A stretch of DNA of 43,981 bases from an uncultured Gammaproteobacteria bacterium (GCA_964350915.1 CAYGLM010000002.1:15728-59708), one strand, 5' to 3'. Numbered from the stretch's first letter, positions 7,206-33,136 are shown. Translations and numbers: made by a program. The notes: generated by a model from the sequence alone, not told the origin.

Positions 7206-7214
7206 TGTTATAAT
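7206..7214 (+). promoter_or_regulatory. Extended -10 promoter element (TGtTATAAT) upstream of the giant-protein locus
   Basis: The sequence ttttaTGtTATAATaaaagc lies in the 94-nt rel/7273 divergent intergenic region. I found no convincing -35. Confidence 0.4.
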
Positions 7215-7272: not shown

Positions 7273-9930
7273 ATGTTGAAAAGATACCCAATATTTTTCG
7301 GCTTTTTATTAGCTATCGCCTCTCTATTGTCGGCTAGTTTTGCTATGGCGCAAGACTTTGGGTTGGAGCCGGTAGATAGCACTATAATGCTAGCTTCAGG
7401 CGACCCTAGAGTAATCATCGGTCGCATCATTCAAATCGCCTTAACTTTTCTCGGCGTTATTTTGCTTGGCCTGATAATTTATGCTGGGTTTTTATGGATG
7501 ACTTCCGGAGGCGAAGAAGAAAAGATTAGGCGCGCTAAAGGTATCTTGCAAAGCGCGATCATTGGGCTAGCGATCACTTTGGCTGCTTGGGCTATTACCA
7601 CTTTTATTATAACTCGCTTATTTGCTGCAATTTCCGGAGGCGGTAGCAATACTCCTTCTGGAACACCGACTAATTTTTCTGGATATGGTTTAGGTGCTAT
7701 CGGCGCCTGCTCAGTTGAATCGGTTTATCCAGAAAATGGCCAGAAAGATGTCCCGAGAAATTCTTCGATTATTATTACTTTTAAAGAAACCATCAGCTTA
7801 GCTTCGGTTTGTGTTAATGCTAGCGGCGCTTCCTGCGCTTGTGATAATGCTGCTTGTTCCAAACTCAATCCTATGGTTATTAGGATTTTTAATACTGAAC
7901 TTGGTGATGCCTGCAGCTCATCTTGTCCTAGTCCTAATTCAAATGTTGCCGACGTTGTTGTTTCAGTTTCTTCAGATAGCCAAACTCTAGTGCTGACTCC
8001 GGCCGGATATCTGGGTTCTCAAGAAAGAAATACGCGCTATGAAGTACGAGTGACAACTGATTTGAAAAAATCGGATGGCTCCTCAATGCTGGCTAGTTGT
8101 AGCGGTGGTGATTTACGCTGGGGATTTGAAGTTAACACTTCGCTCGACCTTACTCCTCCCCAAGTTGTGGCCGGATCATTATTCCCTCAACCCGATAATG
8201 AAAAAGACATTACCGGCGTTAGCGTTCCGGCTGTTGCCGCTACTGGAGAAATTAGAGCCAACAGTTGTCCTAAAAAATATCAGGCAGCTAACATAGTTAG
8301 TGTTACTCCGACCACAGAAGTTTCTCTTGATTATCATGGCACGATTAACAAATTTAAAGTTGTTATTCCAGCTGATACTACTGATCGCGCTCAGCTTTTT
8401 AATGGCAACACTAATGCGCTTTTAGGAATAGCTGATTTTAATGCCCAAAACATCGCTACCTTTCCAAGTTATTTAAGTATTAAGGCGGAAGCGCGAGCAT
8501 CCGGGCAGATGTGGGAGATAAATATTAACCCGGAACAACTTGCCGACACTTTGCGAGTTGGAAATATTGTTTACATTTTTTCTGATAGTAGCGCCAATAA
8601 TAATATTCAAGTTCCTGAAGGAGCTTGCAACACTGATCAGCAGGCGGCTAATATTGCCGCTAAGCTCAGCGGGCACTCGGATGTAAATGTTAATCTTTCT
8701 GGTAGTCGAGTTTTACTAACAGCGAAAATCGCTGGCAGTGCCGGCAATAGCTTGTCTTTAAATACTAGCAATCAAACAGCTTTACTTCTGACTCAATTTT
8801 CTGGAGGTTCAGATTTGGCAACCAGCTATACTATCAATGGTCGCAAGGATGCAGCCATGAACACGATTATTAAAATTGGTTTTAATGAAGCCATTAATCC
8901 GGTTACTTTATCAGGAACAGCTTCTGAGGTGGCTAATTATATTAAAGTAGTTAATGCTGCTGGCGGCGGATTAAATGGTTCTTCTTGCTCTTCAGCAGCT
9001 AATTGCCGGTCTTATAAATGTGATAACTCAACCTGTGTCGGTGATTACCTTAACGGACGCTTTATGGTTAGCAGTGGTTATAGGACAGTAGAATTTATTT
9101 CCGATAATGAATGTGGTATTAATGGTTGCGGTGAAAAAGTATATTGCTTACCACCAAATAGTAATTTAGCAGTAGAAATTAGAGCGGCAAATCTAAGACA
9201 ATGTAATGCTGACTCAGAATGTGCCGCTTTCAGTCCTTTTCGCATCTGTGCTGCTAGTCAGGCCGGAGGCAGGACTTGTCAAGATGCTAATGGGCGCAGT
9301 TATCCTATGGCCAATATCCTTAATTTGGGAGGCGTTACCGACATGGCCTTCAATTCTTTAGATGGCAACCGCGATCGTTTAGCTGATGGCCCGATTACAT
9401 TTTTTAATGAAAATAATGGCAATATTGATAATAGAGATAGTTATCGATTTTCTTTCTTCGTCAATGATCAGAAAGAATTGTCTTCACCTCAAGTTACTTC
9501 CATTCGTCCAGCTAGCGGTGCTGCGGACGTGATCGACTTAGCCTCTCCTGTTGAAATAGCTTTTAATACTTTAATGATGTCTAGCACTCTGCGTTCTGGC
9601 ACAATGGTATCTAGCCCCTCATCTCCAGCTCATAAATTCATCAACCTCAGGAGTGAGGCACCTTCACCCATTGGTTATTGGGTGGAAGGTCAGGATAGAG
9701 ATAATATTCCTCTTGATGGTGTGGTTGATATGACCCTTGCTCTAGTTAAGCACTCTCCTTTTTTAGAATCGTTTACTTACAGTACCCAAATAGGTTCCGG
9801 CGTTAAAGATATTTATCAGAATTGTTTTAAGCCTAGTTCTGGTCCAGGCTGCGAAGCGACCTGGGAAAATCCTTCATGTTGTTTTGGCTCAGCCACTGAT
9901 ACTCTTGATGCGAGCGGAAATTGCCAGTAA
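7273..9930 (+). CDS. 885-aa cysteine-rich surface protein: signal peptide, TrbC/VirB2-like (T4SS-pilin-like) two-helix hairpin, then Ig-like (SbsA/Big_5-type) ectodomains
   Basis: The N-terminus is MLKRYPIFFGFLLAIASLLSASFAMA|QDFGL, followed by DPRVIIGRIIQIALTFLGVILLGLIIYAGFLWMTSGGEEEKIRRAKGILQSAIIGLAITLAAWAITTFI and a Gly/Ser linker. Three segments follow the Big_5 pattern (CSVESVYPENGQKDVPRNSSIIITF; PPQVVAGSLFPQPDN; SPQVTSIRPASGAADVIDLASPVEIAF). There are many Cys clusters. Confidence 0.75.
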   Translation: MLKRYPIFFGFLLAIASLLSASFAMAQDFGLEPVDSTIMLASGDPRVIIGRIIQIALTFLGVILLGLIIYAGFLWMTSGGEEEKIRRAKGILQSAIIGLAITLAAWAITTFIITRLFAAISGGGSNTPSGTPTNFSGYGLGAIGACSVESVYPENGQKDVPRNSSIIITFKETISLASVCVNASGASCACDNAACSKLNPMVIRIFNTELGDACSSSCPSPNSNVADVVVSVSSDSQTLVLTPAGYLGSQERNTRYEVRVTTDLKKSDGSSMLASCSGGDLRWGFEVNTSLDLTPPQVVAGSLFPQPDNEKDITGVSVPAVAATGEIRANSCPKKYQAANIVSVTPTTEVSLDYHGTINKFKVVIPADTTDRAQLFNGNTNALLGIADFNAQNIATFPSYLSIKAEARASGQMWEININPEQLADTLRVGNIVYIFSDSSANNNIQVPEGACNTDQQAANIAAKLSGHSDVNVNLSGSRVLLTAKIAGSAGNSLSLNTSNQTALLLTQFSGGSDLATSYTINGRKDAAMNTIIKIGFNEAINPVTLSGTASEVANYIKVVNAAGGGLNGSSCSSAANCRSYKCDNSTCVGDYLNGRFMVSSGYRTVEFISDNECGINGCGEKVYCLPPNSNLAVEIRAANLRQCNADSECAAFSPFRICAASQAGGRTCQDANGRSYPMANILNLGGVTDMAFNSLDGNRDRLADGPITFFNENNGNIDNRDSYRFSFFVNDQKELSSPQVTSIRPASGAADVIDLASPVEIAFNTLMMSSTLRSGTMVSSPSSPAHKFINLRSEAPSPIGYWVEGQDRDNIPLDGVVDMTLALVKHSPFLESFTYSTQIGSGVKDIYQNCFKPSSGPGCEATWENPSCCFGSATDTLDASGNCQ

Positions 9931-10028
9931 ACAGTAATTAGTAGTTTCTGTAAGTACCGAAGATAGAATTTTAATTAATAGGAGAGTTAAAGGATTGGAC
10001 ATTTTAAAAAACATTTTATTTTTTTCTT

Positions 10029-13000
10029 GTGAAGAATAAATTTTTCAAACATCTTTTATCATTTTTACTTATAGCTTCCGGCTTGTTGTTTTTTCGCCTG
10101 GCTCTAGCGCAGGATTTTGGTCTAGCGGAGGTGGAAAGTGGATTAGGGGGTTCCTTATCGTCTGATGATCCACGTACAATCGCCGGCAGAATAATTAATG
10201 TTTTACTTGGCTTTTTAGGGGTTATCGCTTTAGGACTGATAATCTATGCTGGATTTTTATGGATGACCTCTGGTGGCGAAGAAGATAAAATTTCTAAAGC
10301 TAAAAAATTACTAGTCAGTGCTGTTATCGGTTTAGCTATTATTTTAGCCTCTTGGGCAATTGCCACTTTTGTTATTAATCGTTTAAGCGATGCTACTCAA
10401 GGTGGTGGCGGTGGCGGCTGCGTTTCTGGGGAGACCATGTCTTGCGGCTGCGATGGTATCAAGGTTTGTTTAAATGGTACCTGGCAACCTTGTGTTGGCT
10501 CAGATTGTAGTGGCGGCGGGTTTGGTCCTACTATGTGCGACAGTAGTCCACTGCCAGGCTGCCAAGCTGATAGCGACATCTGTGCCCCGCAAAATTATTG
10601 TGATGATAATTGTTATTGTCGTCCGCGTGGTGAAGTGGGAGATTCTTGTGATGGCGATAAAACAACACCAACCTGCGATGCTAATAACGATTTATGTGGA
10701 GAATTTTTATCTTGCGACTCAGATACTTGCACCTGTTACGGGCCGCCAGTTATTACCAGTATTAGTCCAGCTGGAGGCTTTTGTCAGGAAGATAAGAATA
10801 AGTCATGTCGCCTAGATTCTGACTGCGCAACCACATGCGACAAGATAACTCCTAACGGTGCGCCGGAAAACTTCTTAACCATTTCCGGCAAAGGCTTTGG
10901 TGTTTATGAAGAAGGGATTAGTCGGGTAATATTTATTGCTGGTAACCGCACTGGTCTTAGGCCCGCTACTGTTAATCCAATGTGTGTTAACACCTGGAGT
11001 GATAGTCAAATCATTATCGCCATTCCTAGCGGCGCTGGTGATGGCCCGATTAAAGTTATTAGAAACGATAACATGGAAGATTCTTCGGATAATGATTATG
11101 GTCCCAAGCTACCTAATTTTATTGCAAATAATATAGTGCGCCCCGGTCTTTGTTTCTTGAGTCCGGCAGAAGGTGAGTTGAGTGAAGCGGTTACTTATCA
11201 GGGTATCAATCTTAATAACGGCACTGCATATTTTGGCAGCTATCAGTCTAATGTTCGAGCACTAAATTCTAACTTTAGTTTTCCGGCTGGTACTTCTGGT
11301 ACCGCCCAGGTCCCTAATATCAGATCCGGGGCCACCACCAGTTTCGTAACTAGCACGTTTGGAGGTAATCAGGAAAATAGCAATTACTTACGTTTTACCA
11401 AGAAAGCAGACCCAAGAGAGGGAGCTTATATCGTATCTTTTTCGCCAACCCAAGGTCGCTCGGGGCAATACGTGACAATAAATGGTAGTGGTTTTGGCGG
11501 AATTAAGGGGGATTCAAGAGTTTATTTTGGGGACCAGGAAGCCAATTATACTTTTCCGCCGGTATGCGCAAGTTCTGTCTGGGGAGATAATCAAGTAATT
11601 GTTAAGGTGCCAGAAGGAATAAATAATGGTAATTATTTAATCCGCATGACCATTGGTGGTCAAAACATAGATACGGCTCAGTTAAATCCTAATATTTTTC
11701 AAGCTGACGATTCTTTATCATTAAAGACTAGTATTTGTAAGTTAGAGCCTAGACAGGGAGCAGTTTCTACGCCAGTGAAAATTTACGGAGAATATTTTGG
11801 TGCGGAAAATTCTAGCGGCGTCGCTCAGTTTAATGTACAAAAAAATATTTCTGGCACTATTAAGAAAGAAAGTGCCGCTGATGTATTGGCGGTCTCTGTG
11901 CCGGCCGATGCCATTACTGGCCCGGTCAGAGTGGTGAAAAATGGAGAGTGGGGCAATGAGGCTAATTTCGAAGTTGGTAGTTGTACTTCTAATGACAATT
12001 GCCCCGGTCAAGTATGTTGTCCAGCTAATACTTACAAGAAGGGGCGATGTGTTAATGTTCTTTTGGATTGTTTAATAGATATTCCGACTTCAGTTTTTGA
12101 GTGGAAGTTTAGCACTGGCTATGTTAATCCAAGCCAGATAGATCCGACGGAAAGTTGCGCTACTATTGCTAATCGTTTTGGTAGCTGTCAGGTTGGCTCT
12201 TTCTGTCCGAATGCGCCGGGAGTTTGCTCGCCTTATGCTGGTGGCAGCGAAAAAACAGTTGGTAATTGCGATTATTCTTGTATTTCGATTGCGGGTTGCG
12301 GTGGTGGTATCGGCACAAGCATTTGCAGTTATGATCCAACAATAAATAAATGTGTTAAGAGTGGTTCGGACGGTACTTGTAGCTTGTCAAAGAAACAAAC
12401 CTTTATTATTCAAGAGCAATCATACGAATTCAATCTTACTTGTAGTACTGGTGGCCAGTGGCAATTTACGACTCCGATGTCTTGTCCAGATGGTTGGGAA
12501 AGAAGTGTTAATAATACTTGCATAGATAGATCTTCTAGTTGTGATGTTTGTATTTCTGGATTAAATTGCGAACGAGTCGGATCTGAGGGTCGCTGCGTAT
12601 CGAACAGTATTTGTCCGGCCGGTTCTTTATGTAAGGATGAACCAGATGACACACTTGATCGTTGTGTTGTTAACGATAGTCCAAGTTGTGATTGTTGTTG
12701 CCGTATTGGTAATAGTGCTCAAGATTGTTGTGCCCCTTTACAGTGCACGGGAACTTGCGGTCAGGATACAACAGATGATGGCGCTGGTTACGGGCTATGC
12801 TCGGGATGCGCTAACGCCGGATCAACAACCGCCTCTAGAGACGCTGCTTGTAACTGTACCGGACGTAGTGGTCAATTTTGTAGCGTGACAACAGAAAGAC
12901 AGGACGGAGTTTGTACTGACTGTAGCGGTTTAAAAACTCAAGAAGCCTGTGCTGAACACGCTGGCTCATGTTGTTTTGATGCGAAAAATAATATTTGCCG

Positions 13001-16000
13001 CGGCGGCTCAGGCACAGCTCTTACTGATAACCCCAGCGATTCAGATTACGGCTACTGCGCTTATTATAATTGTTCGGCCAGCGATTCTACTACTTGTGCT
13101 TCTTCTGCTCCGGTAAAAGATGGTTTTTATAAAGATATTGCCGCTTGTGAAAGTGGTTGTGCCTCTGGAATCGATCCTTGCAATCAGTTTAATGGAAGCA
13201 AAGATTCCTGCGTAGCGATGGGTAGTTGTTGCTATGATTTAGCCAGTTCTATTTGTCGCCAGGGAGGGCAGATTACCAGTGGCCCTGATATTGGTTATTG
13301 CGCTTATTATAATTGCGGCGATCCAAATGCGACTCCTCCGGGTAATCCGGAAACTTGTGATAATAATCCGAAAACAACAGGTGCTTATAATAATTTAAAT
13401 ACCTGTAGCTTGATTTGTAGCGGCGGCTTTTCTGGCGCCGGACAAGACTGTGTTTCATCATCTAATGTTTTAGCTTGTAGCTTTTCCGCCTGCAATTATC
13501 CGAGCATGTCCTGTCTCACCGACAGCGGTGCTTCGGCTGGGGATATTTCCGATTGTGGCACTTGCTGCTGTAGTCCATCTGACCCCAATGCTTGCAATGT
13601 TGGCGGTCCAGCTGGAGTATTATATTGCCAACCTAATCAAGGAAAATGTAGTGGTAATAATCGTGGACTATGCTGTGGCTGCAGTCAAGACGTTGATTGT
13701 GTCGGTGGCGTTGGCTCGGCAGAAAATGTTGGTTGTGGTTTAGATACTTGTTGCCAAGCTAGACCTCGAGTCATAGAGTCAATGCCACTAAATAATGCCT
13801 CCAATGTTTGCCGTAATGCTTCAATTGAAGTAACCTTCGATCAGATTATGGATAGTGCTACATTTAACGCTAACATTTTGTTAATTCAGGAGATGAATTA
13901 CGGATCTGGTATTTGTCCGAGCGGCGCCTTTGTTTATGATAATTTTAAAAGTAATAAAGGTGGAATTCTAGATAAGCTAGCAAGATTTTTTCAGCGCGTT
14001 AAGACGTCTTCTGAAAAAATGATTGCTAGAATTTTCCGTGGTGAATCAAGTGCTTTAGCGAACCTGCCTGACCCAAATAAGCTTTATTGCGCGACTCCTG
14101 TCATGGTTTCAGCCTATCACAACGACGAGCAGACGGTGGCAATAATTCGTCCGCGTAACTTGTTAGCACCAGGAGCCAGATATTATTTAGTAGTTAAGGG
14201 CGATGAACAGCTCAATAGTCAATTAGGTGTGACGAGCATGAAGGGAATTGGTATGAACGGCGAGGGATTATTATTATCTGGCGGCGCAGTTGAGGGAGTT
14301 GATATTCAATTTAATAAAACTTCTTATATTAATTCTCATATTTTCCAGTTCACTACTCTGTCCGACAGAGATACTAATGCTGGTGTCTGTGCGATTTCAA
14401 CAGTAAAAATTAGACCATCCTCTTATCTGTTTAAGACGACGAACAATAGTTTAGATGAAAATGATAATAATCCTAGTCACAATACCTTTGATACGGTTTA
14501 TGACCGAGATAAAGTTTTTGCTGCCTGGGCTTATAGTGCAGACGGACAGGCAATTCAACCGGTTACTGGTTATTTTTGGAATTGGGATTTCAGTTTGACT
14601 AATTCCACCATCGTTTCCATGAGAACGCGGGCAGATTTTGCCGGACTAGCTTCGAATCGGGCTTTTATTTCTGCTCGAGAAACTGCTACTGATGGCGAAA
14701 GCAAGCTTATCGCCGCTGTAAATATGACACCATTTTTAAGTGGTGATTCTAATGAAGACCCAGCTTGTGTCTGTGCCGATGATATTTGTTCAAATCGATG
14801 TCTTAATGCTTTTTCTTTCGGCGATAGCATGGCCGCTACGAGTGATATCTACGTATTTATTTGTGAAAACCCTTGGCCACCAGTGAGTGGGGGCGAGTGG
14901 TACCCGTGGCGGGATAATTGCGAAGGAGCTATAGGCGGTTGTGCGGATTTTAATTATAAATTCTATTATTGCCGCGATGCCGGACAGCCAGGAACACACG
15001 ACGATTTACCGGCCATTATTGATAAAGCGGTTATTAGAGGTCAGAGCGCCACCTTAACTTGTAGTTCGGATAGTTCGACTTGCTCCGCAGTTAACACTCC
15101 TTGCGGCGCTGATCTTAATGGCGACGGCACGGCGGATGGAATTTGTATTTGGAATATTTTGAAAGAATCATATTTTTTCCGAGAAGCTGTTTCGTCAGCT
15201 GGAACATTGACGGCAGTGACTGATAAAAAAACAAATGGAGAGGTTTTACTGACCTGGACTTCGAGCAGTGCTCAAGCCGCGTCTTATAAAATATATTATG
15301 GTGAACTCGGTAAAGCCATGACCGGGTCTCAGGAATTTAATGCTAGTGAAGTCTGTAATTTAGTTGGTGCATTTTATAATTGTTCCGCTACAGTTTCTAA
15401 TTTAAAAAATAATCAGGCTTACAATTTTCGACTATCTGTTTTGACTGCTAATAAAGCAGAAAGTGTTTTGAGTAATGAAATGAGGGCAACTCCAACTGAC
15501 CAAACGCCGTACGGCGCTCCTAGTAGATTAAATGTTGAAATTAAAGATAATAAATTTATTTTTTCCTGGGACGACTACGATACGGGCAGCAACAAAATCT
15601 ATCGTCTTTATCACGGAGTTTTTCCCTCAAGGTACGGGGAAAGTTTTGATTCAATCTCACAAGCAAAAAAATTAGAATTTAGCCTTGATAGATTTAATTT
15701 AGGAGATCATTATTTTGCAGTATCTTCTATTGATGCAAGTGGTAATGAAAGCGCTAAATCATTGGAAATAAGCTTTGTTAAAAGCAGTTGTGATAGTGAC
15801 GCGCCAAATTGTTTTAAATTTGTAACCTTTGAGGGCATTCTTACTAATGTTGATTTTGAGCAAACAACCTCTACTGGCCTGCCTCAAGATTGGTCTATTT
15901 CTCAACAAAAATATTCCTCAGTTCGCATTAGTACGGCTGAACAATTTTCTGGCAGACAAAGTGTTTTATTGCATCAAGATCAGGGCCATCCGTATCCTGG

Positions 16001-16706
16001 GCAATGTAATGCTCAAGTATGCACCTCACATCCATCATGCACCTGGAATACTACTTCTAAAACTTGTTCTTTTACTGCTAAGGATGATTGTCATCCCAAT
16101 GAAGCTGCTGTTTATCAAGAAGGAGAAACGCTGTGCTGGGGAAATAGTAATCGGGTCATGTGGTTAAGGCTAGCTTATAATTTAGCAAAACTTGATCTCA
16201 AGCAGGGCGATAAATATTCAATCAGCTTTTACTATAAAGGGAAAACTGCTGGCAATGTTGCCGTTTCTATGTCGCCAAGCTTAGGTTGGAGCACTCAGTG
16301 TATCCACTATTCATCCATTAATGCTTTAAGACCTGGATACACCTGGACTGGCGGAGCAATAACGCCCACACCACCAGCAGGAGCAAATCCGTGCAACGTT
16401 AGTTATGGAGCGCCATGTTCGGAGCAAGCTAATTATTGTTGTGTTCAGTCACCTTATCAAACTGCTTGCTACTCAGCGATTAATATGCCAACAATTAGAA
16501 TTAATACTTATGATGATTGGACTTGGTACTATTATCAGTTTGAATACAGAGATCAAATGGCATCCTGGCTTGATCGTAATGGAAATAAATTAATAGAGAT
16601 GGGAATGGCTATAGGATATAATTCTACAGTTAGTGGTGGCACTGATTTTTATGTTGATGATTTTGTAGTGAGAAAAATTACTTCCGGAGTAGAAATAAAT
16701 TATTAA
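10029..16706 (+). CDS. 2225-aa giant cysteine-rich surface protein: signal peptide, TrbC/VirB2-like hairpin, Cys-knot-like region, about 4 IPT/TIG-like domains, a long Cys-rich core, a Big_5-like domain, 2 FN3-like domains and a CBM_4_9-like C-terminus
   Basis: The N-terminus is paralogous to that of the 7273 protein (ALAQDFGL ... DPRTIAGRIINVLLGFLGVIALGLIIYAGFLWMTSGGEEDKISKAKKLLVSAVIGLAIILASWAIATFV, then GGGGGG). IPT-like segments include IVSFSPTQGRSGQYVTINGSGFGG. FN3-like segments are GEVLLTWTSSSAQAASYKIYYG and FIFSWDDYDTGSNKIYRLYHG. The C-terminus reads NVDFEQT...W...FYVDDFVV. My hand count is about 136 Cys. The start is a GTG with no obvious RBS, so the start is uncertain. Confidence 0.75.
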   Translation: MKNKFFKHLLSFLLIASGLLFFRLALAQDFGLAEVESGLGGSLSSDDPRTIAGRIINVLLGFLGVIALGLIIYAGFLWMTSGGEEDKISKAKKLLVSAVIGLAIILASWAIATFVINRLSDATQGGGGGGCVSGETMSCGCDGIKVCLNGTWQPCVGSDCSGGGFGPTMCDSSPLPGCQADSDICAPQNYCDDNCYCRPRGEVGDSCDGDKTTPTCDANNDLCGEFLSCDSDTCTCYGPPVITSISPAGGFCQEDKNKSCRLDSDCATTCDKITPNGAPENFLTISGKGFGVYEEGISRVIFIAGNRTGLRPATVNPMCVNTWSDSQIIIAIPSGAGDGPIKVIRNDNMEDSSDNDYGPKLPNFIANNIVRPGLCFLSPAEGELSEAVTYQGINLNNGTAYFGSYQSNVRALNSNFSFPAGTSGTAQVPNIRSGATTSFVTSTFGGNQENSNYLRFTKKADPREGAYIVSFSPTQGRSGQYVTINGSGFGGIKGDSRVYFGDQEANYTFPPVCASSVWGDNQVIVKVPEGINNGNYLIRMTIGGQNIDTAQLNPNIFQADDSLSLKTSICKLEPRQGAVSTPVKIYGEYFGAENSSGVAQFNVQKNISGTIKKESAADVLAVSVPADAITGPVRVVKNGEWGNEANFEVGSCTSNDNCPGQVCCPANTYKKGRCVNVLLDCLIDIPTSVFEWKFSTGYVNPSQIDPTESCATIANRFGSCQVGSFCPNAPGVCSPYAGGSEKTVGNCDYSCISIAGCGGGIGTSICSYDPTINKCVKSGSDGTCSLSKKQTFIIQEQSYEFNLTCSTGGQWQFTTPMSCPDGWERSVNNTCIDRSSSCDVCISGLNCERVGSEGRCVSNSICPAGSLCKDEPDDTLDRCVVNDSPSCDCCCRIGNSAQDCCAPLQCTGTCGQDTTDDGAGYGLCSGCANAGSTTASRDAACNCTGRSGQFCSVTTERQDGVCTDCSGLKTQEACAEHAGSCCFDAKNNICRGGSGTALTDNPSDSDYGYCAYYNCSASDSTTCASSAPVKDGFYKDIAACESGCASGIDPCNQFNGSKDSCVAMGSCCYDLASSICRQGGQITSGPDIGYCAYYNCGDPNATPPGNPETCDNNPKTTGAYNNLNTCSLICSGGFSGAGQDCVSSSNVLACSFSACNYPSMSCLTDSGASAGDISDCGTCCCSPSDPNACNVGGPAGVLYCQPNQGKCSGNNRGLCCGCSQDVDCVGGVGSAENVGCGLDTCCQARPRVIESMPLNNASNVCRNASIEVTFDQIMDSATFNANILLIQEMNYGSGICPSGAFVYDNFKSNKGGILDKLARFFQRVKTSSEKMIARIFRGESSALANLPDPNKLYCATPVMVSAYHNDEQTVAIIRPRNLLAPGARYYLVVKGDEQLNSQLGVTSMKGIGMNGEGLLLSGGAVEGVDIQFNKTSYINSHIFQFTTLSDRDTNAGVCAISTVKIRPSSYLFKTTNNSLDENDNNPSHNTFDTVYDRDKVFAAWAYSADGQAIQPVTGYFWNWDFSLTNSTIVSMRTRADFAGLASNRAFISARETATDGESKLIAAVNMTPFLSGDSNEDPACVCADDICSNRCLNAFSFGDSMAATSDIYVFICENPWPPVSGGEWYPWRDNCEGAIGGCADFNYKFYYCRDAGQPGTHDDLPAIIDKAVIRGQSATLTCSSDSSTCSAVNTPCGADLNGDGTADGICIWNILKESYFFREAVSSAGTLTAVTDKKTNGEVLLTWTSSSAQAASYKIYYGELGKAMTGSQEFNASEVCNLVGAFYNCSATVSNLKNNQAYNFRLSVLTANKAESVLSNEMRATPTDQTPYGAPSRLNVEIKDNKFIFSWDDYDTGSNKIYRLYHGVFPSRYGESFDSISQAKKLEFSLDRFNLGDHYFAVSSIDASGNESAKSLEISFVKSSCDSDAPNCFKFVTFEGILTNVDFEQTTSTGLPQDWSISQQKYSSVRISTAEQFSGRQSVLLHQDQGHPYPGQCNAQVCTSHPSCTWNTTSKTCSFTAKDDCHPNEAAVYQEGETLCWGNSNRVMWLRLAYNLAKLDLKQGDKYSISFYYKGKTAGNVAVSMSPSLGWSTQCIHYSSINALRPGYTWTGGAITPTPPAGANPCNVSYGAPCSEQANYCCVQSPYQTACYSAINMPTIRINTYDDWTWYYYQFEYRDQMASWLDRNGNKLIEMGMAIGYNSTVSGGTDFYVDDFVVRKITSGVEINY
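12921..13427 (+). repeat. Tandem duplication of an approximately 85-aa cysteine-rich module within the 2225-aa protein
   Basis: Copy A is CSGLKTQEACAEHAGSCCFDAKNNICRGG...DYGYCAYYNCSASDSTTC...CESGCASG. Copy B is CNQFNGSKDSCVAMGSCCYDLASSICRQG...DIGYCAYYNCGDPNATPPGNPETC...CSLICSGG. The Cys spacing and the GYCAYYNC core are conserved. Confidence 0.8.
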
Positions 16707-16725
16707 TTTGGTAGTTTTATTTTAT

Positions 16726-19700
16726 ATGAAAAATTATAAATTTAAATTAACGCTTTTCATTATTATTATTGTTGCCACGCTAATATTATTTGCTCCGCAG
16801 ACTAGAGCGCAATCAGCTGACAATAATCCCGATGCAATTGCTATTCGCGTTATTCCTAATCCCAATCATTATAGCGTTACACGCTGGTATCAGAATCAGG
16901 GATTTTCCGGCTCACCTCAGGCGCTAACGGTTGATGGTTATGAAGCTTTGCGTGACGGACGTACCGTGTATATAAATGCTGCCAATGTGGTGGGTAAGAC
17001 TATCTATACTAATATTTATTTGATTTCCTATAACCAGGATTATAGTGTTAAAACGGTGGATATTTTAGGACAAATCATCGCTAACTGGAAGTTTAATGAT
17101 AATCTTCCCGCCGAAGCATCGACTTGTTCTATTTCTGCCTTGAAATGTGAGAAAGACGCGGACTGCGCTTCAAGTCAATCCTGTGACTTAGTTCGCGGCG
17201 CCTGTGTTTTAAAGGAAGTGAAAAGCTGTGCGGTTGATACCGATTGTCCCGTTAATTTTTTCTGTGATAGTATAAAAGCTAAAATTATTCGTGACTTAAA
17301 ACGAGTCGGTCGTGTAGAAGAGATAAGAGAAGCGTTAACGAGATATCGTAATGCTAATGGTCGCTATCCATTGCTTGATGCCGGAACTTATTTACCAGGA
17401 AAAACAACTTCGCTCTGGCCGAGTTGGAATCAAGTATTTTTACCGGCCGTTGGCTTGAGCCAAGGAGTTCTTGATCCAGTTAATCGTTTCGGATCTTGTC
17501 CGGGCTATGATGCTAAAACTTGTTGGGATAAGGATAAGCAGGAATTTATTGGAGCGCCAGCGGCTGGAGACTTAACTATTTCCTTGCCGGCCGATAGCCA
17601 TGCCCTAGTTTATACTACTAACCAATCTGGTTCCCAATATAATATTTGCGCCGTAATGGAAAGTCGTGAGCCAGAGCTTGGCTATACTTTATATCCTAAT
17701 GACCCGATAGGCAGTAGCTGTGTTACCAATACTGGGATTTTAGCCACCGGTAACGCTTTTAATAATCTGCCACAAATTACCGAATTATCATTAAAAGGAA
17801 TAGCTGGCCGTGAATATAATGGCTTTGTTAAAGCAGTTGATATAGATAATGATCCTTTGACCTGGTCTTTGTCTGGCGGTAGCTGGGCGGGCTGGTCAGC
17901 TATGCCGGCTATTCAAGGAACTAGTGATCCGAATCAGAAAAAATTATTTTCTTCTCGTGCTGGTAGCCCTGGCATATACCCCGTTACTATTACAGTTAGA
18001 GATACAAGAGGCGGAGTAACTTCAACGACGACTAATATTGAAATAATTTCTTCTTCTTCTTTCGCAGAAGTTGATGAATATAATTATCGTCTTGATCCGA
18101 TAGTTCCTTTTGACTATAGTTTTTACGTATCTGGAAATAACGCCGCACCAACTTATGGACTAAGAGCAATTTCTGAGCCCGATGTGCTTAGATATTCCAA
18201 TATTAGAATTAATGAGTCGTCTGACGGCACTAACCGCGTAAAAGTTTCTTTTCAGGGAATAATTTCACCTACTATTAAATTTAATGAAGATACGGAAACC
18301 GTTTACGAGCTGACAGTTAATTCATCAGGGGCAACCGCAGCCGTTAGTCGTTTTATTGTTAGAATCAAGATAGATAGACCTATTTTGGAGTTAAATTGTG
18401 AAACTCAGTCACGTCATAATTACGACTACAGCTGTCGTTTGGGCAATATCAAACAAGGAAATCATGATATAGAATATAATTCCGTTCTCGCTCTTCCTGC
18501 TGGACTTTCAGTGGGAGAAAAGACAAGCGAACCCGGAGTGATTTATTTATTTGGCAAAACAACCACTGTTCATCCCGGACAAGAAGTAAGAATAAGGGCC
18601 GTCAATGAATACGGCACAGAGACTATAAGAAGTTTTATTTTAAGAGTGAATACTTATTGTGGCGACGGCTTTAAACAAGCGCCCAACATGGAAGGACGCG
18701 GCGGCGTTTTCAATAATGGTTATGAGGCTTGTGATGGAAAAGCAGACGAGGCGGTTTCTGCCACTGATAGTAGTAAATATAGACAGTATGCTTGCAATAC
18801 CCCAACAGGAGCAGTGACTCCTTATCCAATTTCTGGAAGCAGTTATTGTGTATTTAAATCACCGCTTGATGGCGGAGGATATTGCGGGGATACTTATTGT
18901 CAGACCAGACATGAAGATAAGAGTACCTGCCCGTTTGATTGCGATCCCGCGTTTTCAGGTTCAGGGCAAAATCTTGGCGGAGACAACCCCGGTGCCATCA
19001 GTTGTCAGCTAACTAACTATTGTCCAGACGGCCAAACCTGTGTCAACGGTACTTGTGTGAGTCAGTGTTGGGACAGGGAAGTTGTCAGTAAGGTACAGTT
19101 TTCAGAAGGAGATGCAACTAGACCAGGAACTTATGAATATCGTGACTGTAATTTTTTTGGCTTTGATTGTGTAGCAACTTTTACCTATACTTCAACCAAA
19201 ATATCTCCAAGTACTGATGGTACTATCAAATATTGTTTCGCCGATAATTATCCTAATACCCCCGCCTACCCCAGAGGCAACTATTGCACCATTGTTAGAA
19301 TAGATGATCCATTTTGCACTAATAGCGCCCTTTGTCCGGTTGGTTTTAGTGATTTAAAACAAGTAGGACTTACTGGCACTGGCGACACTTGTCGCGATAA
19401 ATCTGACACCTGTCCCAATAGATGGTGTCAAAGACGTATTTATGAATGCTCTAAAACGCAGACAGTAACTTATTGTGTTGGAGATGCTTGTAGCACAACA
19501 GGAGGAACGGTTATGGATGGTAAAATTAACTCTAGCGGACAATGCATAGGATATGTAGTAGTAACACCTCCAGTCATTCCGGCAGACTCCTGTTCTTCCG
19601 ATAGTGAGTGTGCTACTGGTCAAGAATGTGTTGGCGTTCAAGGAAGTTGTGTTGACAATAATACAAGGGCATATTCTGCTAATTGTGATCAGTATTCTTT

Positions 19701-20580
19701 TGATTCAACCATTTGTGTTGCTAACCCTTATTATTCTTGCGATTGGGTTCCAACAATTCTTGGCACCTGCGTAACTAAGCAAGTTGTTGTTGACCCAACG
19801 CCCACTCCTCCGCCAACAACTTGTACTCCGGTGTGTGAGGTGGGGCGTTGTGGCGATAACCAGTGCGGTGGCACTTGTCCTTGCTACAGTGGCTCAGCTT
19901 GTGACAATGCAACTAAGACCTGTAAATGTTTAACCGGGTGCGCCTATACTGTAGCGTCAAGCAATGTTAATACGCTCTATAATTGTAGCGTTTATAATAA
20001 TTATTGTTCTCCTGGTGGCGGCTATTGTGGAGACCTGAGATGTGATGACAGAATATTAGATGATTGGAACGGGTTAATTGCCGGGGAAACATTTGATAAC
20101 TGTCCTACTGATTGTTCGGCACCACGTTGTGAATGTAAGGCAGTTAATCCAACATTTCAATGTGGTAGAGCTATTTGCCCTGATGGTAAGACGTCGTATA
20201 TGTGTGGCGTGTGTGAAGGTCAGCCATCTGGCGGTTGGCAGTCCTATGAATGTATTAATAATATGTGTGTGCCGAAATTAAAAGAAACCTGCGGCAACGG
20301 TGTGATAGATGCTTTCGAGACTTGTGATGATGGCGCAAATAATATTGCTGAAGCTGATATTCCAACCAGAGAACAATTAACACATCTTTATAATTATTCA
20401 ATGCAGAAGTATTGCACTACTATAAATTGTTTAAGAATGAACGTCTATCCGCCCAAATGTGGCGACGGTATTTGTGATTTTGATATTCTTCCAGATAAGG
20501 AAGGCTGCGGCTCAATAACTTGTCGAGACAATTATGGAATTCCCCAATATGATTGCGTGGGGAGTCCAAAATGTAGTTAA
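16726..20580 (+). CDS. 1284-aa cysteine-rich secreted protein with an internal pilin/pseudopilin-like globular segment, cadherin-like (He_PIG/Cadg-type) Ig domains and Myxococcus-type cysteine-rich repeats
   Basis: Signal peptide MKNYKFKLTLFIIIIVATLILFAPQTRAQSA (ATG at 16726 preferred over the TTG at 16708). IIRDLKRVGRVEEIREALTRYRNANGRYP...LDPVN...YNICAVMES resembles the globular head of type IV pilins/GspG. DNDPLTWSLSGG...GIYPVTITVRDTRGG is cadherin/He_PIG-like. CGDGFKQ...GYEACDG and CGNGVIDAFETCDDGANN resemble the Myxococcus Cys-rich repeat. Confidence 0.7.
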   Translation: MKNYKFKLTLFIIIIVATLILFAPQTRAQSADNNPDAIAIRVIPNPNHYSVTRWYQNQGFSGSPQALTVDGYEALRDGRTVYINAANVVGKTIYTNIYLISYNQDYSVKTVDILGQIIANWKFNDNLPAEASTCSISALKCEKDADCASSQSCDLVRGACVLKEVKSCAVDTDCPVNFFCDSIKAKIIRDLKRVGRVEEIREALTRYRNANGRYPLLDAGTYLPGKTTSLWPSWNQVFLPAVGLSQGVLDPVNRFGSCPGYDAKTCWDKDKQEFIGAPAAGDLTISLPADSHALVYTTNQSGSQYNICAVMESREPELGYTLYPNDPIGSSCVTNTGILATGNAFNNLPQITELSLKGIAGREYNGFVKAVDIDNDPLTWSLSGGSWAGWSAMPAIQGTSDPNQKKLFSSRAGSPGIYPVTITVRDTRGGVTSTTTNIEIISSSSFAEVDEYNYRLDPIVPFDYSFYVSGNNAAPTYGLRAISEPDVLRYSNIRINESSDGTNRVKVSFQGIISPTIKFNEDTETVYELTVNSSGATAAVSRFIVRIKIDRPILELNCETQSRHNYDYSCRLGNIKQGNHDIEYNSVLALPAGLSVGEKTSEPGVIYLFGKTTTVHPGQEVRIRAVNEYGTETIRSFILRVNTYCGDGFKQAPNMEGRGGVFNNGYEACDGKADEAVSATDSSKYRQYACNTPTGAVTPYPISGSSYCVFKSPLDGGGYCGDTYCQTRHEDKSTCPFDCDPAFSGSGQNLGGDNPGAISCQLTNYCPDGQTCVNGTCVSQCWDREVVSKVQFSEGDATRPGTYEYRDCNFFGFDCVATFTYTSTKISPSTDGTIKYCFADNYPNTPAYPRGNYCTIVRIDDPFCTNSALCPVGFSDLKQVGLTGTGDTCRDKSDTCPNRWCQRRIYECSKTQTVTYCVGDACSTTGGTVMDGKINSSGQCIGYVVVTPPVIPADSCSSDSECATGQECVGVQGSCVDNNTRAYSANCDQYSFDSTICVANPYYSCDWVPTILGTCVTKQVVVDPTPTPPPTTCTPVCEVGRCGDNQCGGTCPCYSGSACDNATKTCKCLTGCAYTVASSNVNTLYNCSVYNNYCSPGGGYCGDLRCDDRILDDWNGLIAGETFDNCPTDCSAPRCECKAVNPTFQCGRAICPDGKTSYMCGVCEGQPSGGWQSYECINNMCVPKLKETCGNGVIDAFETCDDGANNIAEADIPTREQLTHLYNYSMQKYCTTINCLRMNVYPPKCGDGICDFDILPDKEGCGSITCRDNYGIPQYDCVGSPKCS

Positions 20581-20591
20581 TAAAAAATTAT

Positions 20592-20897
20592 ATGAATAAA
20601 AAACAAAAATTAATTATAATATCAAGTCTAGCGGCGTTGTTGATAGTTGTTATTGTCTTAATAATAACTACAAATCGCGGTGATGATCAGGGCTACTGGC
20701 CGGATGCTGACCAGTATACACCTGAGTTTATGTCGGCCGAGGAAAAGTATATGTTTGATTTATCAGAAGACACACAAGTCCAAGTTCTGAAGCGAGAGGA
20801 GTCAGGCATGGTTGAAGTTTACAAAGTAATTAGAAGCGAAGACGATATTATCCATGACCTGGATTCAATTAAGCCTATAGATCCTAGATATAATTAA
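20592..20897 (+). CDS. Small bitopic membrane protein, function unknown (101 aa)
   Basis: N-terminal TM helix LIIISSLAALLIVVIVLIITT followed by an acidic soluble tail. It starts 11 nt after the preceding stop, which suggests co-transcription. Confidence 0.5.
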   Translation: MNKKQKLIIISSLAALLIVVIVLIITTNRGDDQGYWPDADQYTPEFMSAEEKYMFDLSEDTQVQVLKREESGMVEVYKVIRSEDDIIHDLDSIKPIDPRYN

Positions 20898-20942
20898 ACG
20901 ATTTATATTGTCGGCCCTTAACTCAACACTTTTTGCTATATT

Positions 20943-20970
20943 TTGAGTTTGGCGATTTATTGAGTATAAT
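20943..20970 (+). promoter_or_regulatory. Putative internal sigma70-type promoter (TTGAGT-16-TATAAT) ahead of the 21004 gene
   Basis: ttgagt at 20943..20948 and tataat at 20965..20970, in the 106-nt gap inside the locus. Confidence 0.4.
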
Positions 20971-21003
20971 AAAAGAATAGGGATAAAAATTTATAAAAAA
21001 AAT

Positions 21004-21792: not shown

Positions 21793-21814
21793 TTAGCTTA
21801 TTATTTTTTATGTT

Positions 21815-22021
21815 ATGTTAACCGCTGATAATAAAAATTCCTTAACAGAAGCTCCTCAACAGAATCAACAAGTCGATGTTAATGTTAAAAAAAAGAGTCG
21901 ACTGGCGATTGATGTTCATTCTATGCCTAGAACTAGCGAAAAAAGTTTGAAAATTTGGTTCGTTTTGGGAGGAGTAGCTATTTTGGTAGTAATTGGTTTA
22001 ATCGCTATTTTATTAATTTGA
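21815..22021 (+). CDS. 68-aa tail-anchored membrane protein; looks like a truncated paralog of the N-terminal module of the next gene
   Basis: KKKSRLAIDVHSMPRTSEKS plus TM helix IWFVLGGVAILVVIGLIAILLI, compared with KPKVTVDQDLIVHNMPHRSRFS ... TM in the 22024 protein. Its stop is 2 nt before the next ATG. Confidence 0.45.
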   Translation: MLTADNKNSLTEAPQQNQQVDVNVKKKSRLAIDVHSMPRTSEKSLKIWFVLGGVAILVVIGLIAILLI

Positions 22022-22023
22022 TT

Positions 22024-23070
22024 ATGTTCGGAAAAAAGCCAGTAGGAAAAACAGAAGAGAATAAGCCTAAAGTTACGGTTGATCAAGATTTGATTGTCCA
22101 TAACATGCCGCATCGTTCTCGCTTTAGTACGGCGCCAAGCATGAAAAAAAGTGTTAATTCTGGCAATGAATTTTTAGGAGCGCCGGCTAAAACCCCGAAT
22201 AATTTTAAGGTCGTGGGCGGGCTGATAATTGGCTTCGGTATAATTTTTATCGGTACTTTGGCCTATCTTAGTTATCGCTTTATTATTAAGCCTCAAGCCG
22301 AGCCAGCACCGATAATAAAACAAGAACCGACGCCGGTTGCACCGGTAAATGAGGTGGAGGTAGATTTGACTGAAGTAGCAGTTTCGACCTCAACACCAGT
22401 AGAGGGAGTAGAGGCCAACATTATTGATTTAGAATCCGAAGGAGAAACAGTGGTTCCTGATAATGAATCAGATGTTTTGATGCCGGAAGAGGGCCTGGGG
22501 TCACCGGAAACTCCCTGGTCGCCGGTTTTAGATACTGACGGTGACGGCTTAACAGATGATGAAGAGGCCGTCTTAGGGACTAATCTCAATGAAATTGATA
22601 CGGATCAAGATGGTTATCTAGATTTAGCAGAAATAAAAAGCGGTTATGATCCTAGTGGTCCAGGCAGGCTAATCGATAATAAAAATATTGCTCGCTATCA
22701 GGGCGAGGTTGGAAGGTACTCCTTGCTTTACCCGGTAGCTTGGAATATCAGGACGCTTAACAATGGTTATACTGCTATGATTTCTGCTCCGGATAATTCC
22801 CTGATGCAAATATCAGTCCAGGAAAATCCACGCATTCAAGACATTAGTAGTTGGTATCAAGATACTTTTCCTGGAGAAAATATGTCTTATGACCGAGTTA
22901 AGAATGGTCCTGGCTGGGAAGGAATTATGGGCGAGAATGGTTTAAATTTTTATTTAACCGATCAGGCCAGACAGAGTATTTATGTGATATCATATATTCC
23001 GGCGATGAGTGGACGCTTAGCTTATCCCAATATTTTTCAGATGTTAATTGATACTTTTCAATTAAATTAA
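22024..23070 (+). CDS. Bitopic membrane protein with TSP3-like Ca-binding repeats and a C-terminal globular domain of unknown function (348 aa)
   Basis: The ATG at 22024 (MFGKKPVGK) is preferred over the ORF-track start at 21955, which overlaps the upstream gene. TM helix VVGGLIIGFGIIFIGTLAYLSY. Repeats DTDGDGLTDDEEAVLGTNLNEIDTDQDGYLDLAEIKSGYDPSGPGRL. Confidence 0.65.
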   Translation: MFGKKPVGKTEENKPKVTVDQDLIVHNMPHRSRFSTAPSMKKSVNSGNEFLGAPAKTPNNFKVVGGLIIGFGIIFIGTLAYLSYRFIIKPQAEPAPIIKQEPTPVAPVNEVEVDLTEVAVSTSTPVEGVEANIIDLESEGETVVPDNESDVLMPEEGLGSPETPWSPVLDTDGDGLTDDEEAVLGTNLNEIDTDQDGYLDLAEIKSGYDPSGPGRLIDNKNIARYQGEVGRYSLLYPVAWNIRTLNNGYTAMISAPDNSLMQISVQENPRIQDISSWYQDTFPGENMSYDRVKNGPGWEGIMGENGLNFYLTDQARQSIYVISYIPAMSGRLAYPNIFQMLIDTFQLN

Positions 23071-23103: not shown

Positions 23104-23132
23104 AAAACAACGCCTTAAGGGCGATGTTTTTT
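23104..23132. terminator. Bidirectional hairpin terminator between the 22024 gene and convergent clpP
   Basis: In aaaaacaaCGCCTtaaGGGCGatgtttttt the core 5-bp stem has one G.U and a 3-nt loop, extended by A/T pairs, with an A-run on the 5' side and a T-run on the 3' side. Confidence 0.5.
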
Positions 23133-23170
23133 ATGTAAAAAAGATTTTTTTGAAGAATATAGTAAATGTT

Positions 23171-25632: not shown

Positions 25633-25664
25633 AGTTAATAAGTCTTTAGTCTTTAATTAAATAT

Positions 25665-29017: not shown

Positions 29018-29022
29018 TTTTT

Positions 29023-33123: not shown

Positions 33124-33136
33124 TTATCAAATCCCT

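Follow-up and report, generated by a model that had tools for sequence, protein, structure and literature searches.

Members of the Patescibacteria account for a large share of uncultivated bacterial diversity, and their physical engagement with other cells is largely unexplained. In the only Patescibacterial system that has been tested genetically, the Saccharibacterium Southlakia epibionticum, VirB2-like pilins were found to be an unusual and essential part of this organism's type IV secretion machinery (type IV secretion system, T4SS) and to be needed for epibiotic growth (PMC10633639). A study of 3,035 Patescibacteria genomes reported 441 arrays of VirB2-like genes, each consisting of two to 11 genes, with a mean identity of 25% and a maximum of 54%; pilin genes were located near virB4 in 1,135 of 1,948 assemblies, and at least four Falkowbacteria rows of its Table S1 are listed with VirB4 (PMC12102498). 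A 2025 review describes the Patescibacteria T4SS as unique among monoderms, in which T4SSs are normally pilin-less, for its pilus-making potential (PMC12857230). Pilins with giant extensions are mentioned in none of these three publications. Large cysteine-rich proteins, by contrast, have been described in the Peribacteria, where they average 1,655 amino acids (aa) and about 7% cysteine, mostly carry signal peptides, are clustered in the genome, show weak similarity to cysteine-rich repeats of Myxococcus and have been proposed to act in attachment (PMC4736985). Here we analyzed 43,981 nucleotides (nt) of DNA from an assembly titled as an uncultured Gammaproteobacteria bacterium (GCA_964350915.1, CAYGLM010000002.1:15728-59708; hereafter the window, meaning this whole stretch), and in particular a block of seven genes (g1-g7) at positions 7273-23070, which an earlier reading of the sequence (the original prediction) had singled out as a candidate undescribed surface or host-attachment system. 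VirB2-type pilins and giant surface proteins rich in immunoglobulin-like (Ig-like) domains are each known, and in this block they are combined in an undescribed, conserved, multi-component form. In our full-text literature searches, neither giant VirB2-fusion proteins nor this operon turned up in any publication. The earlier statement that no characterized system with this composition is known is supported, with the reservation that the Peribacteria proteins (PMC4736985) and the VirB2-like pilins are partial precedents.

The seven genes lie consecutively on the + strand between rel and clpP, both of which are on the - strand. The gaps from g1 to g7 are 98, 19, 11, 106, 22 and 2 nt, and the span of 15,798 nt fills 35.9% of the window. 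The gene calls thus agreed with the predicted layout of seven consecutive + strand genes with gaps of 2-106 nt over about 36% of the window, and also with its housekeeping flanks, rel on the 5' side and clpP, secD and secF on the 3' side. All products of the block are predicted to be exported or membrane-anchored. The genes are as follows.

7273..9930, + strand: g1, 885 aa; signal peptide, VirB2-like hairpin, linker, Big_5 domain, beta domain at residues 315-515, beta-rich region and cysteine-rich C-terminus
10029..16706, + strand: g2, 2225 aa, GTG start; pilin fusion with Pfam matches to T4SS_pilin, TIG, Big_5 and fn3
16726..20580, + strand: g3, 1284 aa counted from the ATG; predicted secreted protein whose only hydrophobic segment is the N-terminal signal peptide
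20592..20897, + strand: g4, 101 aa
21004..21792, + strand: g5, 262 aa
21815..22021, + strand: g6, 68 aa
22024..23070, + strand: g7, 348 aa

The original prediction listed a T4SS_pilin profile search among its checks, and gave this feature less weight than it deserves. The search confirmed the match in both g1 and g2 (PF18895; 34.2 and 33.4 bits, respectively, with a cut-off of 26.6), and TrbC (PF04956) was also recorded for several homologues of the two proteins. The modules concerned are the following.

7273..7620, + strand: g1 residues 1-116, signal peptide (predicted cut after AMA, before Q) and complete VirB2/TrbC-type pilin module
10029..10385, + strand: g2 residues 1-119, signal peptide (predicted cut after ALA, before Q) and VirB2/TrbC-type pilin module

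Besides the profile score, both modules have the architecture of a VirB2/TrbC-type pilin, namely a signal peptide and two hydrophobic helices, which flank a charged loop, GFLWMTSGGEE(E/D)K. In g1, the hydropathy segments are at residues 7-25, 52-70 and 95-113, and the AlphaFold2 model places the helices at residues 45-77 and 82-120. Short pilins of 115-131 aa are collinear with residues 1-120 of g1 and g2 and end just past the second helix, exactly where the glycine-rich linkers of g1 and g2 start. The signal peptides are predicted to be cleaved at the AxA-Q junction and, given that the loop follows the positive-inside pattern, the C-terminal extensions should lie outside the cell; we infer an extracellular topology for them on this ground. 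These are not small pilin-only precursors of about 100-150 aa, in that the extensions are kept in hundreds of homologues. When we looked for paralogy among the giant proteins, g1 and g2 were found to have only the pilin module in common, where they are 61% identical, and g3 is unrelated to g2. Residues 51-100 are the best-conserved 50-residue block of the whole g2 protein (mean identity 0.70). This high conservation, together with the identity between the paralogues, is the strongest reason to regard the pilin module as more than a passive anchor, and argues for specific protein contacts.

The locus thus resembles the VirB2-like arrays of Patescibacteria (PMC10633639, PMC12102498) in the family of the module, in having two tandem genes and in the phylum. 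However, the described pilins are small, whereas g1 and g2 carry extracellular extensions of about 770 and 2,100 aa; the members of an array are on average 25% identical, so that the high divergence typical of the arrays is not found between the 61% identical modules of g1 and g2; and the g1-g7 locus is not next to virB4.

Next, we analyzed the regions beyond the pilin modules. In g2 and g3 they comprise the following features.

10743..11984, + strand: g2 residues 239-652, IPT/TIG region with four TIG-like segments
11982..13763, + strand: g2 residues 652-1245, cysteine-rich core (from the cysteine density profile)
15216..15773, + strand: g2 residues 1730-1915, fn3 pair (Pfam fn3, 25.9 bits against a cut-off of 25)
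15786..16703, + strand: g2 residues 1920-2225, accessory C-terminal domain, present in a minority of orthologues only
16726..18960, + strand: g3 residues 1-745, conserved core with the N-domain (about 36-345), three Ig/cadherin-like domains and a CGDG-type cysteine-rich repeat
18961..20577, + strand: g3 variable cysteine-rich C-terminal region, the proposed distal tip

Beyond its pilin module, g2 is built in the order of cysteine-rich modules, TIG region, cysteine-rich core, Big_5 domain, a conserved region without domain assignment (1450-1720), fn3 pair and accessory C-terminus. One TIG segment is significant in Pfam (467-547) and the other three were read from the sequence pattern; the region gave PDB profile matches to the TIG domains of cyclodextrin glycosyltransferases, and the fn3 pair gave matches to Fn domains of fibronectin, titin and PTP-delta. 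A GYCAYYNC module is duplicated within the core (motif at 1008 and at 1089), and residues 700-1300 hold 10-15 cysteines per 100 aa. In g1, a Big_5 Ig domain (56.1 bits) is followed by a beta domain that was modeled by AlphaFold2 with a predicted local distance difference test (pLDDT) score of about 90 and has no informative structural match; Foldseek searches with the g1 model returned Ig-like matches only. In g3, invariant alignment columns extend to C739, and residues 350-645 were modeled as three tandem Ig/cadherin-like domains with Foldseek matches to titin and desmoglein (E of about 1e-11) and also to protocadherins. The predicted adhesin-type modules were therefore recovered above the Pfam cut-offs for TIG, Big_5 and fn3. 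The cadherin/He_PIG module remained below the cut-off in g3 (16.8 versus 24 bits) and was supported by the structural models, whereas a carbohydrate-binding module (CBM) at the C-terminus of g2 was rejected (CBM_4_9, E = 1.6).

We also observed that the motif VGRVEEIREALTRYRNANGRYPLLDAG at window positions 17305-17385 (g3 residues 194-220) resembles the ...ALDMYKLDNSRYP... helix end of GspG/PulG pseudopilins. In hhalign, these 27 residues were aligned to ...ALDMYKLDNSRYP... of a PulG-like sequence with a probability of only 6%. A GspG or pseudopilin head at g3 residues 185-240 had no Pfam or PDB sequence match, and the AlphaFold2 model is poor there.

The giant proteins are also characterized by their cysteines, of which there are 26 in g1 (2.9%), 136 in g2 (6.1%) and 82 in g3 (6.4%), compared with an average of 0.82% in the other 23 open reading frames (ORFs) of the window. 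The hand count of about 136 cysteines in g2 was borne out by the program count of exactly 136, and the quoted run CDCCCRIGNSAQDCCAPLQCTGTCGQ was located at residues 887-912; the description of all three products as extremely cysteine-rich suits g2 and g3, whereas g1 is only moderately so. No cysteine was found in g4, g5, the translation of g6 or the long ORF that holds g7. Nearly all cysteines are invariant among the homologues of the giant proteins, and their number is even in 112 of 120 g2, 107 of 120 g1 and 95 of 120 g3 homologues (79-93%). The commonest counts among the g2 homologues are 124, 126, 122, 120, 136, 130, 140 and 138. Given that these differ by two, cysteines appear to have been gained or lost in pairs. 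This parity, together with the predicted extracellular location, points to structural disulfides between the cysteines. A thiol-disulfide oxidoreductase of the MdbA-like type, found together with VKOR and enriched in the Candidate Phyla Radiation (CPR), is known from an earlier study (bioRxiv 10.1101/335083). The Peribacteria proteins (PMC4736985), which we compared with g1-g3 by description only, are similarly large and cysteine-rich. However, they belong to another CPR lineage, in which strain variation was stressed, whereas g1-g3 are conserved, and they have been described without a pilin module, partner proteins or a conserved operon.

To see how widely the block is distributed, we scanned one genome per species and found that at least 527 species genomes encode a g2 relative. 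In total, g2 had 592 homologues at E <= 1e-5, the best 120 of which are about 1,700-2,400 aa long and 37-65% identical, with most covering 85-100% of the query. The 120 listed g1 homologues measure 875-921 aa and show 49-79% identity over 96-100% of the query. This constancy of length is more in keeping with an apparatus of fixed geometry than with an adhesin of the usual diversifying kind. For g3, there were 442 homologues at E <= 1e-5 that have the first 740 aa or so in common. The C-terminal ends of g2 and g3 are where most of the variation lies. In the homologue alignment, residues 1951-2225 of g2 have a gap fraction of 0.66-0.77, and most g2 homologues cover just 86% of the query. Most g3 matches cover only the first 55-75% of the query, and the g3 homologues, which are 885-1663 aa long, differ in their additional domains (beta-helix, CarboxypepD_reg or Fib_succ_major, among others). 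The names given to the homologues by NCBI are only 'IPT/TIG domain-containing protein', 'pilin' and 'Ig-like domain-containing protein', and their organisms are named Candidatus Falkowbacteria or 'Patescibacteria group', which is consistent with the CPR origin that had been proposed for the window. A table in PMC12102498 places the Falkowbacteria in GTDB class ABY1. Many metagenome-assembled genomes with this Patescibacteria-type locus are titled 'uncultured Gammaproteobacteria bacterium' (L010-L085), and single ones Balneolaceae or Bacillota; these titles are almost certainly wrong.

We then examined gene order in the 37 loci that reach from hisS to secD. The order rel-g1-g2-g3-g5-g7-clpP is kept in 36 of them. 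In the single exception (L054; CAZYNT010000002.1, about 12773-18922), g2 is directly followed by g4-g7 and g3 was undetected by tblastn, which may represent a natural loss of g3. The median identity to the window in these loci is 51% for g1, 47% for g2, 42% for g3 and 38-40% for g4-g7, whereas it is 68% for hisS, 64% for secD, 78% for rel and 87% for clpP. Judged by these alignments, the genes of the block evolve faster than housekeeping genes, yet clearly under purifying selection with a fixed architecture. An identical g1 sequence was also found on contigs from six samples or runs. On this comparative record, g1-g7 are real and intact genes that belong to the vertically inherited genome core of Falkowbacteria-type Patescibacteria and not to a mobile island. 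Three outcomes had been named as speaking against the original prediction, namely that the genes are never co-located in relatives, that the large ORFs contain frameshifts, and that they belong to already-characterized, unrelated families. None of these was observed, given the collinear loci and the intact genes, and no such family accounts for the system.

A further clue was obtained from distant lineages, which we collected by a metagenome scan with a short pilin as the query and in which hisS is only 39-51% identical. On four independent contigs (L104, L110, L112 and L119), a pilin module, a g2-like TIG region, a region like g2 1216-1685 and the g3 N-domain follow one another, in frame and collinear, in a single ORF without interruption that is between 2,600 and more than 3,400 aa long, with E values of 3e-38 in L112, 2e-31 in L110 and 6e-14 in L104. 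L119 holds a complete fused ORF of 3032 aa that is preceded by a g1-like protein of 593 aa (pilin plus Big_5) and followed by a 270-aa ORF matching the TSP3 repeats of g5 and g7. Because the two proteins are fused in four distant lineages, the N-domain of g3 is predicted to bind the distal part of g2, and probably docks there. In intermediate lineages (L059 and L036), only g2, g3, g5 and g7 were found beside clpP. As far as can be read from these contigs, the core layout (a g1-like protein, g2 with g3, and a TSP3 protein, beside hisS) is shown to be older than the Falkowbacteria lineage.

The four small proteins encoded downstream, g4-g7, are all predicted to be bitopic, are cysteine-free, and have equivalents of the same sizes and transmembrane positions in about 41-46 of 50 loci. 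The N-terminal transmembrane segment characterizes g4, whose equivalent ORF was collected in 41 related loci. A conserved motif, VDDIFA.TD, lies in the cytoplasmic N-terminus of g5, followed by a transmembrane segment at about residue 68 and four extracellular TSP3 repeats (TSP3_bac, 119 bits; DxDxDG at 166, 188, 211 and 234). The tail-anchored g6 has a cytoplasmic rLsl.lH.MP motif, and 43 related loci yielded an equivalent ORF, with lengths of 53-87 aa. Finally, g7 consists of a cytoplasmic iVhNMP motif, a transmembrane segment, two TSP3-type DxDxDG motifs and, at the C-terminus, a globular domain about 130 aa in size, for which a PsbP-like fold is not claimed (E = 0.11 only). Two of the four bitopic proteins had been predicted to carry TSP3 repeats; this is clear for g5, whereas g7 scored just below the cut-off (22.6 versus 25 bits) with two motifs present. 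The repeats of g5 and g7 are predicted from their sequence to bind calcium. The cytoplasmic motifs of g5, g6 and g7 occur nowhere else in the window, save for one DDIFS inside NrdD. Among known TSP3 proteins (PF18884; CglD and MtsD of Myxococcus), g5 and g7 share the DxDxDG repeats, and the NCBIfam matches cover the repeats. However, the scores are far below the family cut-offs (52.6 versus 400 bits), only the repeats are common, and g5 and g7 are instead small bitopic proteins with conserved cytoplasmic motifs of their own.

We also compared the block with other adhesive systems. The giant adhesins of monoderms, such as SasG and the Mobiluncus giant adhesin (PMC4458895, PMC10619420), are likewise long rods of tandem Ig-like domains, and the internal domain cross-links of the Mobiluncus protein include disulfides, as we propose for g1-g3. 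However, they are anchored by sortase at an LPXTG signal and vary in repeat number, whereas the products of g1-g7 have no LPx[TSA]G, their C-termini are polar or cysteine-rich, the anchor is a pilin hairpin, and the order of domains in g1 and g2 is fixed and non-repetitive with a conserved length. The g1-g7 locus further encodes g3 as a putative distal partner of its own, together with four small membrane proteins as additional partners. Searches of g1-g7 turned up neither an LPXTG signal nor a lipobox, an SLH domain or an RTX repeat. Type I-secreted RTX adhesins are also set apart by the N-terminal signal peptides of g1-g3, and neither RTX matches in the products of the block nor type I secretion system genes nearby were found. 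VirB5 of the T-pilus and PrgB of pCF10 have the role that we propose here, that of an adhesive element working with a T4SS in cell-cell contact, but they have no sequence or fold relation to the block, and in g1 and g2 the adhesive part is covalently fused to the pilin. PrgB-type adhesins were undetected in Patescibacteria (PMC12102498).

Based on these results, we propose, with about an even chance of being right, that the block encodes a Sec-exported, pilin-anchored surface fiber that is stabilized by disulfides and Ca2+, probably co-assembles with the VirB2-like pilins or T4SS-like machinery of its lineage, and functions in contacting a host or substrate. In this model, g1 and g2 would be made as VirB2/TrbC-type pilins, with a signal peptide cut after AxA, two helices and a charged cytoplasmic loop. 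Their C-termini would exit the cell and run on past the glycine-rich linker as a rod built from Ig-like (Big_5, TIG, fn3) and cysteine-rich modules, with a length of about 770 aa in g1 and about 2,100 aa in g2. The g3 protein would be secreted separately and dock with its conserved N-domain on distal g2, placing three cadherin-like domains and a lineage-variable, cysteine-rich end at the tip. Together, g2 and g3 would form one long serial fiber and g1 a shorter companion, while g4-g7 might form or organize a Ca-binding membrane base. The pilin modules most likely still interact with other VirB2-like pilins or T4SS-like machinery, so that the fibers would sit at or on that structure and could mediate contact with a host cell or substrate. 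Gene structure, domain content, conservation, synteny, the g2-g3 fusion, cysteine parity and promoter conservation are observed, and it is from these that we infer the topology, the disulfides, the docking of g3 on g2, the role of g4-g7, the T4SS link and the function in adhesion or host contact.

Several observations weigh against this proposal. It is difficult to see how a canonical VirB2 pilus would accommodate 770-2,100 aa of passenger on each of its subunits, and fixed lengths with about 50% cross-species identity are unlike host-specific adhesins, which usually diversify. The most conserved part of g3, residues 23-345, was modeled poorly (pLDDT < 50 for 23-115 and 190-344), so that the docking idea comes from the fusion. 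VirB4, VirB6, VirB3 and TrsD were not found in the 44-kb window, which weighs most heavily against the T4SS link, and where the neighbors of related loci were read, they were housekeeping genes. The only T4SS-related match in the window is an ATPase similar to type IV coupling proteins (T4CP), 13.5 kb downstream, which is not informative for the T4SS link given that such genes are reported to be abundant in Patescibacteria and usually far from virB4. This gene (36218-38655) has TrwB_AAD_bind, TraG-D_C and DUF87 matches and a treble-clef zinc finger, has no N-terminal transmembrane segment, and is preceded by a gene for a 114-aa protein with one hydrophobic segment.

We also considered the possibility that the block encodes a constitutive envelope scaffold or surface coat, such as surface layer (S-layer)-like or wall-spanning fibrils, in which the hairpin is a recycled anchor with no role in T4SS or host recognition. 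We regard this as rather unlikely, but it is the main alternative. It would account for the core position among housekeeping and Sec genes (lepB upstream and secDF downstream), for vertical inheritance in 36 of 37 loci with fixed protein lengths and a conserved strong extended -10 element, for the Big_5/SbsA-type Ig domains with weak Foldseek matches to the S-layer proteins Sap and SbsB, and for the absence of T4SS genes nearby; tandem arrays of small pilins also occur away from virB4. On the other hand, a recycled anchor would not be expected to be the best-conserved block of g2 and 61% identical between paralogues. S-layer proteins are typically cysteine-poor, whereas g1-g3 contain about 3-6% cysteine (2.9-6.4%), and neither an SLH match nor another wall-binding domain was found in them. 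Furthermore, the distal ends of g2 and g3 are lineage-variable, as expected for ligand-facing tips.

Fusions of pilin modules to giant cysteine-rich proteins are widespread. The number of cluster representatives matched by the 125-residue g2 module was 32,840 at a threshold of E <= 1e-3 and 8,648 at one of E <= 1e-10. Among the 150 best clusters, we retrieved 146 sequences, of which 45 are 1,000-4,834 aa long; most of these have a single N-terminal module, their median cysteine content is 4.95%, and in examples they carry Big_5, Big_7, TIG or LVIVD domains. Complete pilin modules are thus very often the N-terminal anchor of giant and probably disulfide-rich extracellular proteins, and in one large lineage two such proteins occur in a conserved operon with a putative docking partner and four small, putatively Ca-binding membrane proteins. 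One caution is that counts of VirB2 made by profile coverage alone may take giant fusions for pilins. Some 'short' pilin entries in metagenome protein sets are contig-end fragments of giant fusions, and the existence of small free pilins 55-60% identical to the g2 module is not claimed because P0376 (119 aa) proved to be the truncated N-terminus of a 909-aa g1 orthologue (L086, 5615-8344). Genuine small pilins were confirmed only at about 40-56% identity to the g2 module. In another Patescibacterium (L122, 8126-11187), six small T4SS_pilin genes (121-264 aa) form a tandem array that does not adjoin virB4. Its flanks hold PBP1, NusA, H+-PPase and trigger factor, and the ten neighboring ORFs that were scanned gave no match to a T4SS family. 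We also found concatenated VirB2-like pilins with 2-17 modules (P0365, P0404 and others), including a case of 1,775 aa with 17 modules; in P0404, T4SS_pilin is matched at least seven times and TrbC (PF04956) is matched as well. No description of this concatenated architecture was found.

A broader speculation, which we consider doubtful but worth stating, is that the VirB2-type module is a general platform for display or export in Patescibacteria, with a T4SS-like machine extracting the passenger fusions from the membrane and assembling them into a brush-like or tipped filament. If this speculation is true, then the disulfide-rich passengers of 800 to about 4,800 aa would be the actual host-contact organelle, by a route of surface display not known in any other bacteria, and the seven-gene block would be its conserved, fixed-geometry Falkowbacteria version, in which g3 is secreted on its own to become the tip and g4-g7 supply the base. 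The locus gives the specific prediction that g3 binds g2 and a possible answer to the question of what Patescibacterial pilins are for.

Alternatively, g1 and g2 would themselves be the polymerizing subunits, extracted by a T4SS-like machine into a bottle-brush pilus with giant passengers on every or many subunits. The pilin modules are indeed complete and highly conserved, fusions of 1,000-4,834 aa are common (the 45 of 146 mentioned above), and C-terminal passengers would face outward if the module packs like F- or T-type pilins. However, such a pilus would involve much steric crowding and would be costly to synthesize for a cell whose genome is only about 1 Mb in size, assembly genes are absent nearby, and two different passengers of fixed length suggest a defined stoichiometry, not a homopolymer. 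We regard such a pilus as improbable.

It seems similarly improbable that the block is an apparatus for capturing or degrading substrates (polysaccharide, particles or prey walls), in which the TIG, fn3 and CBM-like modules serve an unrecognized catalytic domain. TIG and fn3 domains occur in glycoside hydrolases, and the PDB matches of g2 are to the TIG domains of cyclodextrin glycosyltransferases; some g3 relatives have a beta-helix or Fib_succ_major domain, a distant fused relative has a near-threshold CBM_4_9 match (24.4 versus 25.9 bits), and large stretches (g1 315-515, g2 1450-1720 and g3 23-345) are without domain assignment. However, as the original prediction had stated from the sequence, the giant proteins contain no recognizable enzymatic motif: no enzyme domain was found in g1-g3 by Pfam and NCBIfam (whole proteins and unassigned segments), by PDB profiles or by Foldseek. 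These searches gave only Ig-like, TIG or fn3 matches (Foldseek with g1 and g3 against PDB, and with g1 against viral structures). In addition, the CBM_4_9 match in the window protein had an E value of 1.6, and the accessory domains are not conserved across the family.

Finally, the extreme cysteine density, with runs such as CDCCC, and the anoxic groundwater in which many of these organisms live would also suit cysteines that bind metals or Fe-S clusters or act in redox reactions (metal sequestration or extracellular electron transfer), but we consider this extremely improbable, because even counts in steps of two fit pairs and not the three or four ligands required per cluster, Pfam gave no match to a family of the haem-binding or ferredoxin type, and the proteins are predicted to be extracellular.

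We also analyzed the transcription signals of the block, which include the following elements.

7206..7214, + strand: extended -10 element TGTTATAAT for g1, read directly, 67 nt 5' of the ATG
20965..20970, + strand: candidate internal -10 box TATAAT before g5, part of the promoter-like TTGAGT-16-TATAAT at 20943-20970
23111..23133, + strand: hairpin CGCCTTAAGGGCG (23111-23123) and T-run, read from the sequence

The predicted TGnTATAAT element at 7206..7214 and the hairpin terminator 3' of the block were both present. TGnTAnAAT was found in 52 of 56 orthologous rel-g1 spacers, mostly 62-69 nt 5' of the g1 ATG, which gives phylogenetic support for the g1 promoter. In the g4-g5 spacer, a -10-like hexamer (TA[T/A/C]AAT; always exact TATAAT) is present in 34 of 39 loci, commonly about 33-35 nt 5' of the g5 ATG. 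Given this conserved hexamer, the block probably consists of two units, g1-g4 and g5-g7, or of one operon with an internal promoter; the end signals named in the original prediction are confirmed, and a second promoter before g5 is probable. Because of the A-run 5' of the hairpin CGCCTTAAGGGCG, the hairpin can also terminate the convergent clpP, and a bidirectional terminator common to both is possible.

The window as a whole is an AT-rich chromosomal piece (about 40% G+C) with a reduced, CPR-type gene content, including ruvB, queA, lepB, hisS, rel, clpP, secD, secF, a Wzy_C/TPR protein, a prepilin peptidase, ftsA, ftsZ, nrdR, nrdD, the T4CP-like ATPase, a DivIC-like protein and a DD-carboxypeptidase. 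The gene for signal peptidase I, lepB (3327-3968), is 3.3 kb upstream of the block, and secD and secF (23953-26585) follow clpP in all 37 region-spanning loci, adjacent to it in most. This proximity could be either a functional coupling to the export of the giant proteins or mere synteny of the lineage. A basic 80-aa ORF that overlaps the end of hisS (5407-5649) looks by eye like ribosomal protein S21; it gave no Pfam match at E <= 0.01, and related loci have it as a called gene of 76-80 aa. Positions 26669-29787 encode a polytopic 782-aa Wzy_C protein (O-antigen ligase-like) with C-terminal TPR repeats, followed by the prepilin peptidase, and the Wzy_C gene was called right after secF in the three related loci with gene lists that far (L007-L009). 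Beside the DivIC-like gene, a Peptidase_S11 DD-carboxypeptidase is fused to an RlpA-like DPBB domain (41767-43257). At 32662-35197, the listed NrdD ORF (TTG at 33017) overlaps nrdR by about 100 nt, and the true start of nrdD is probably further downstream than this TTG.

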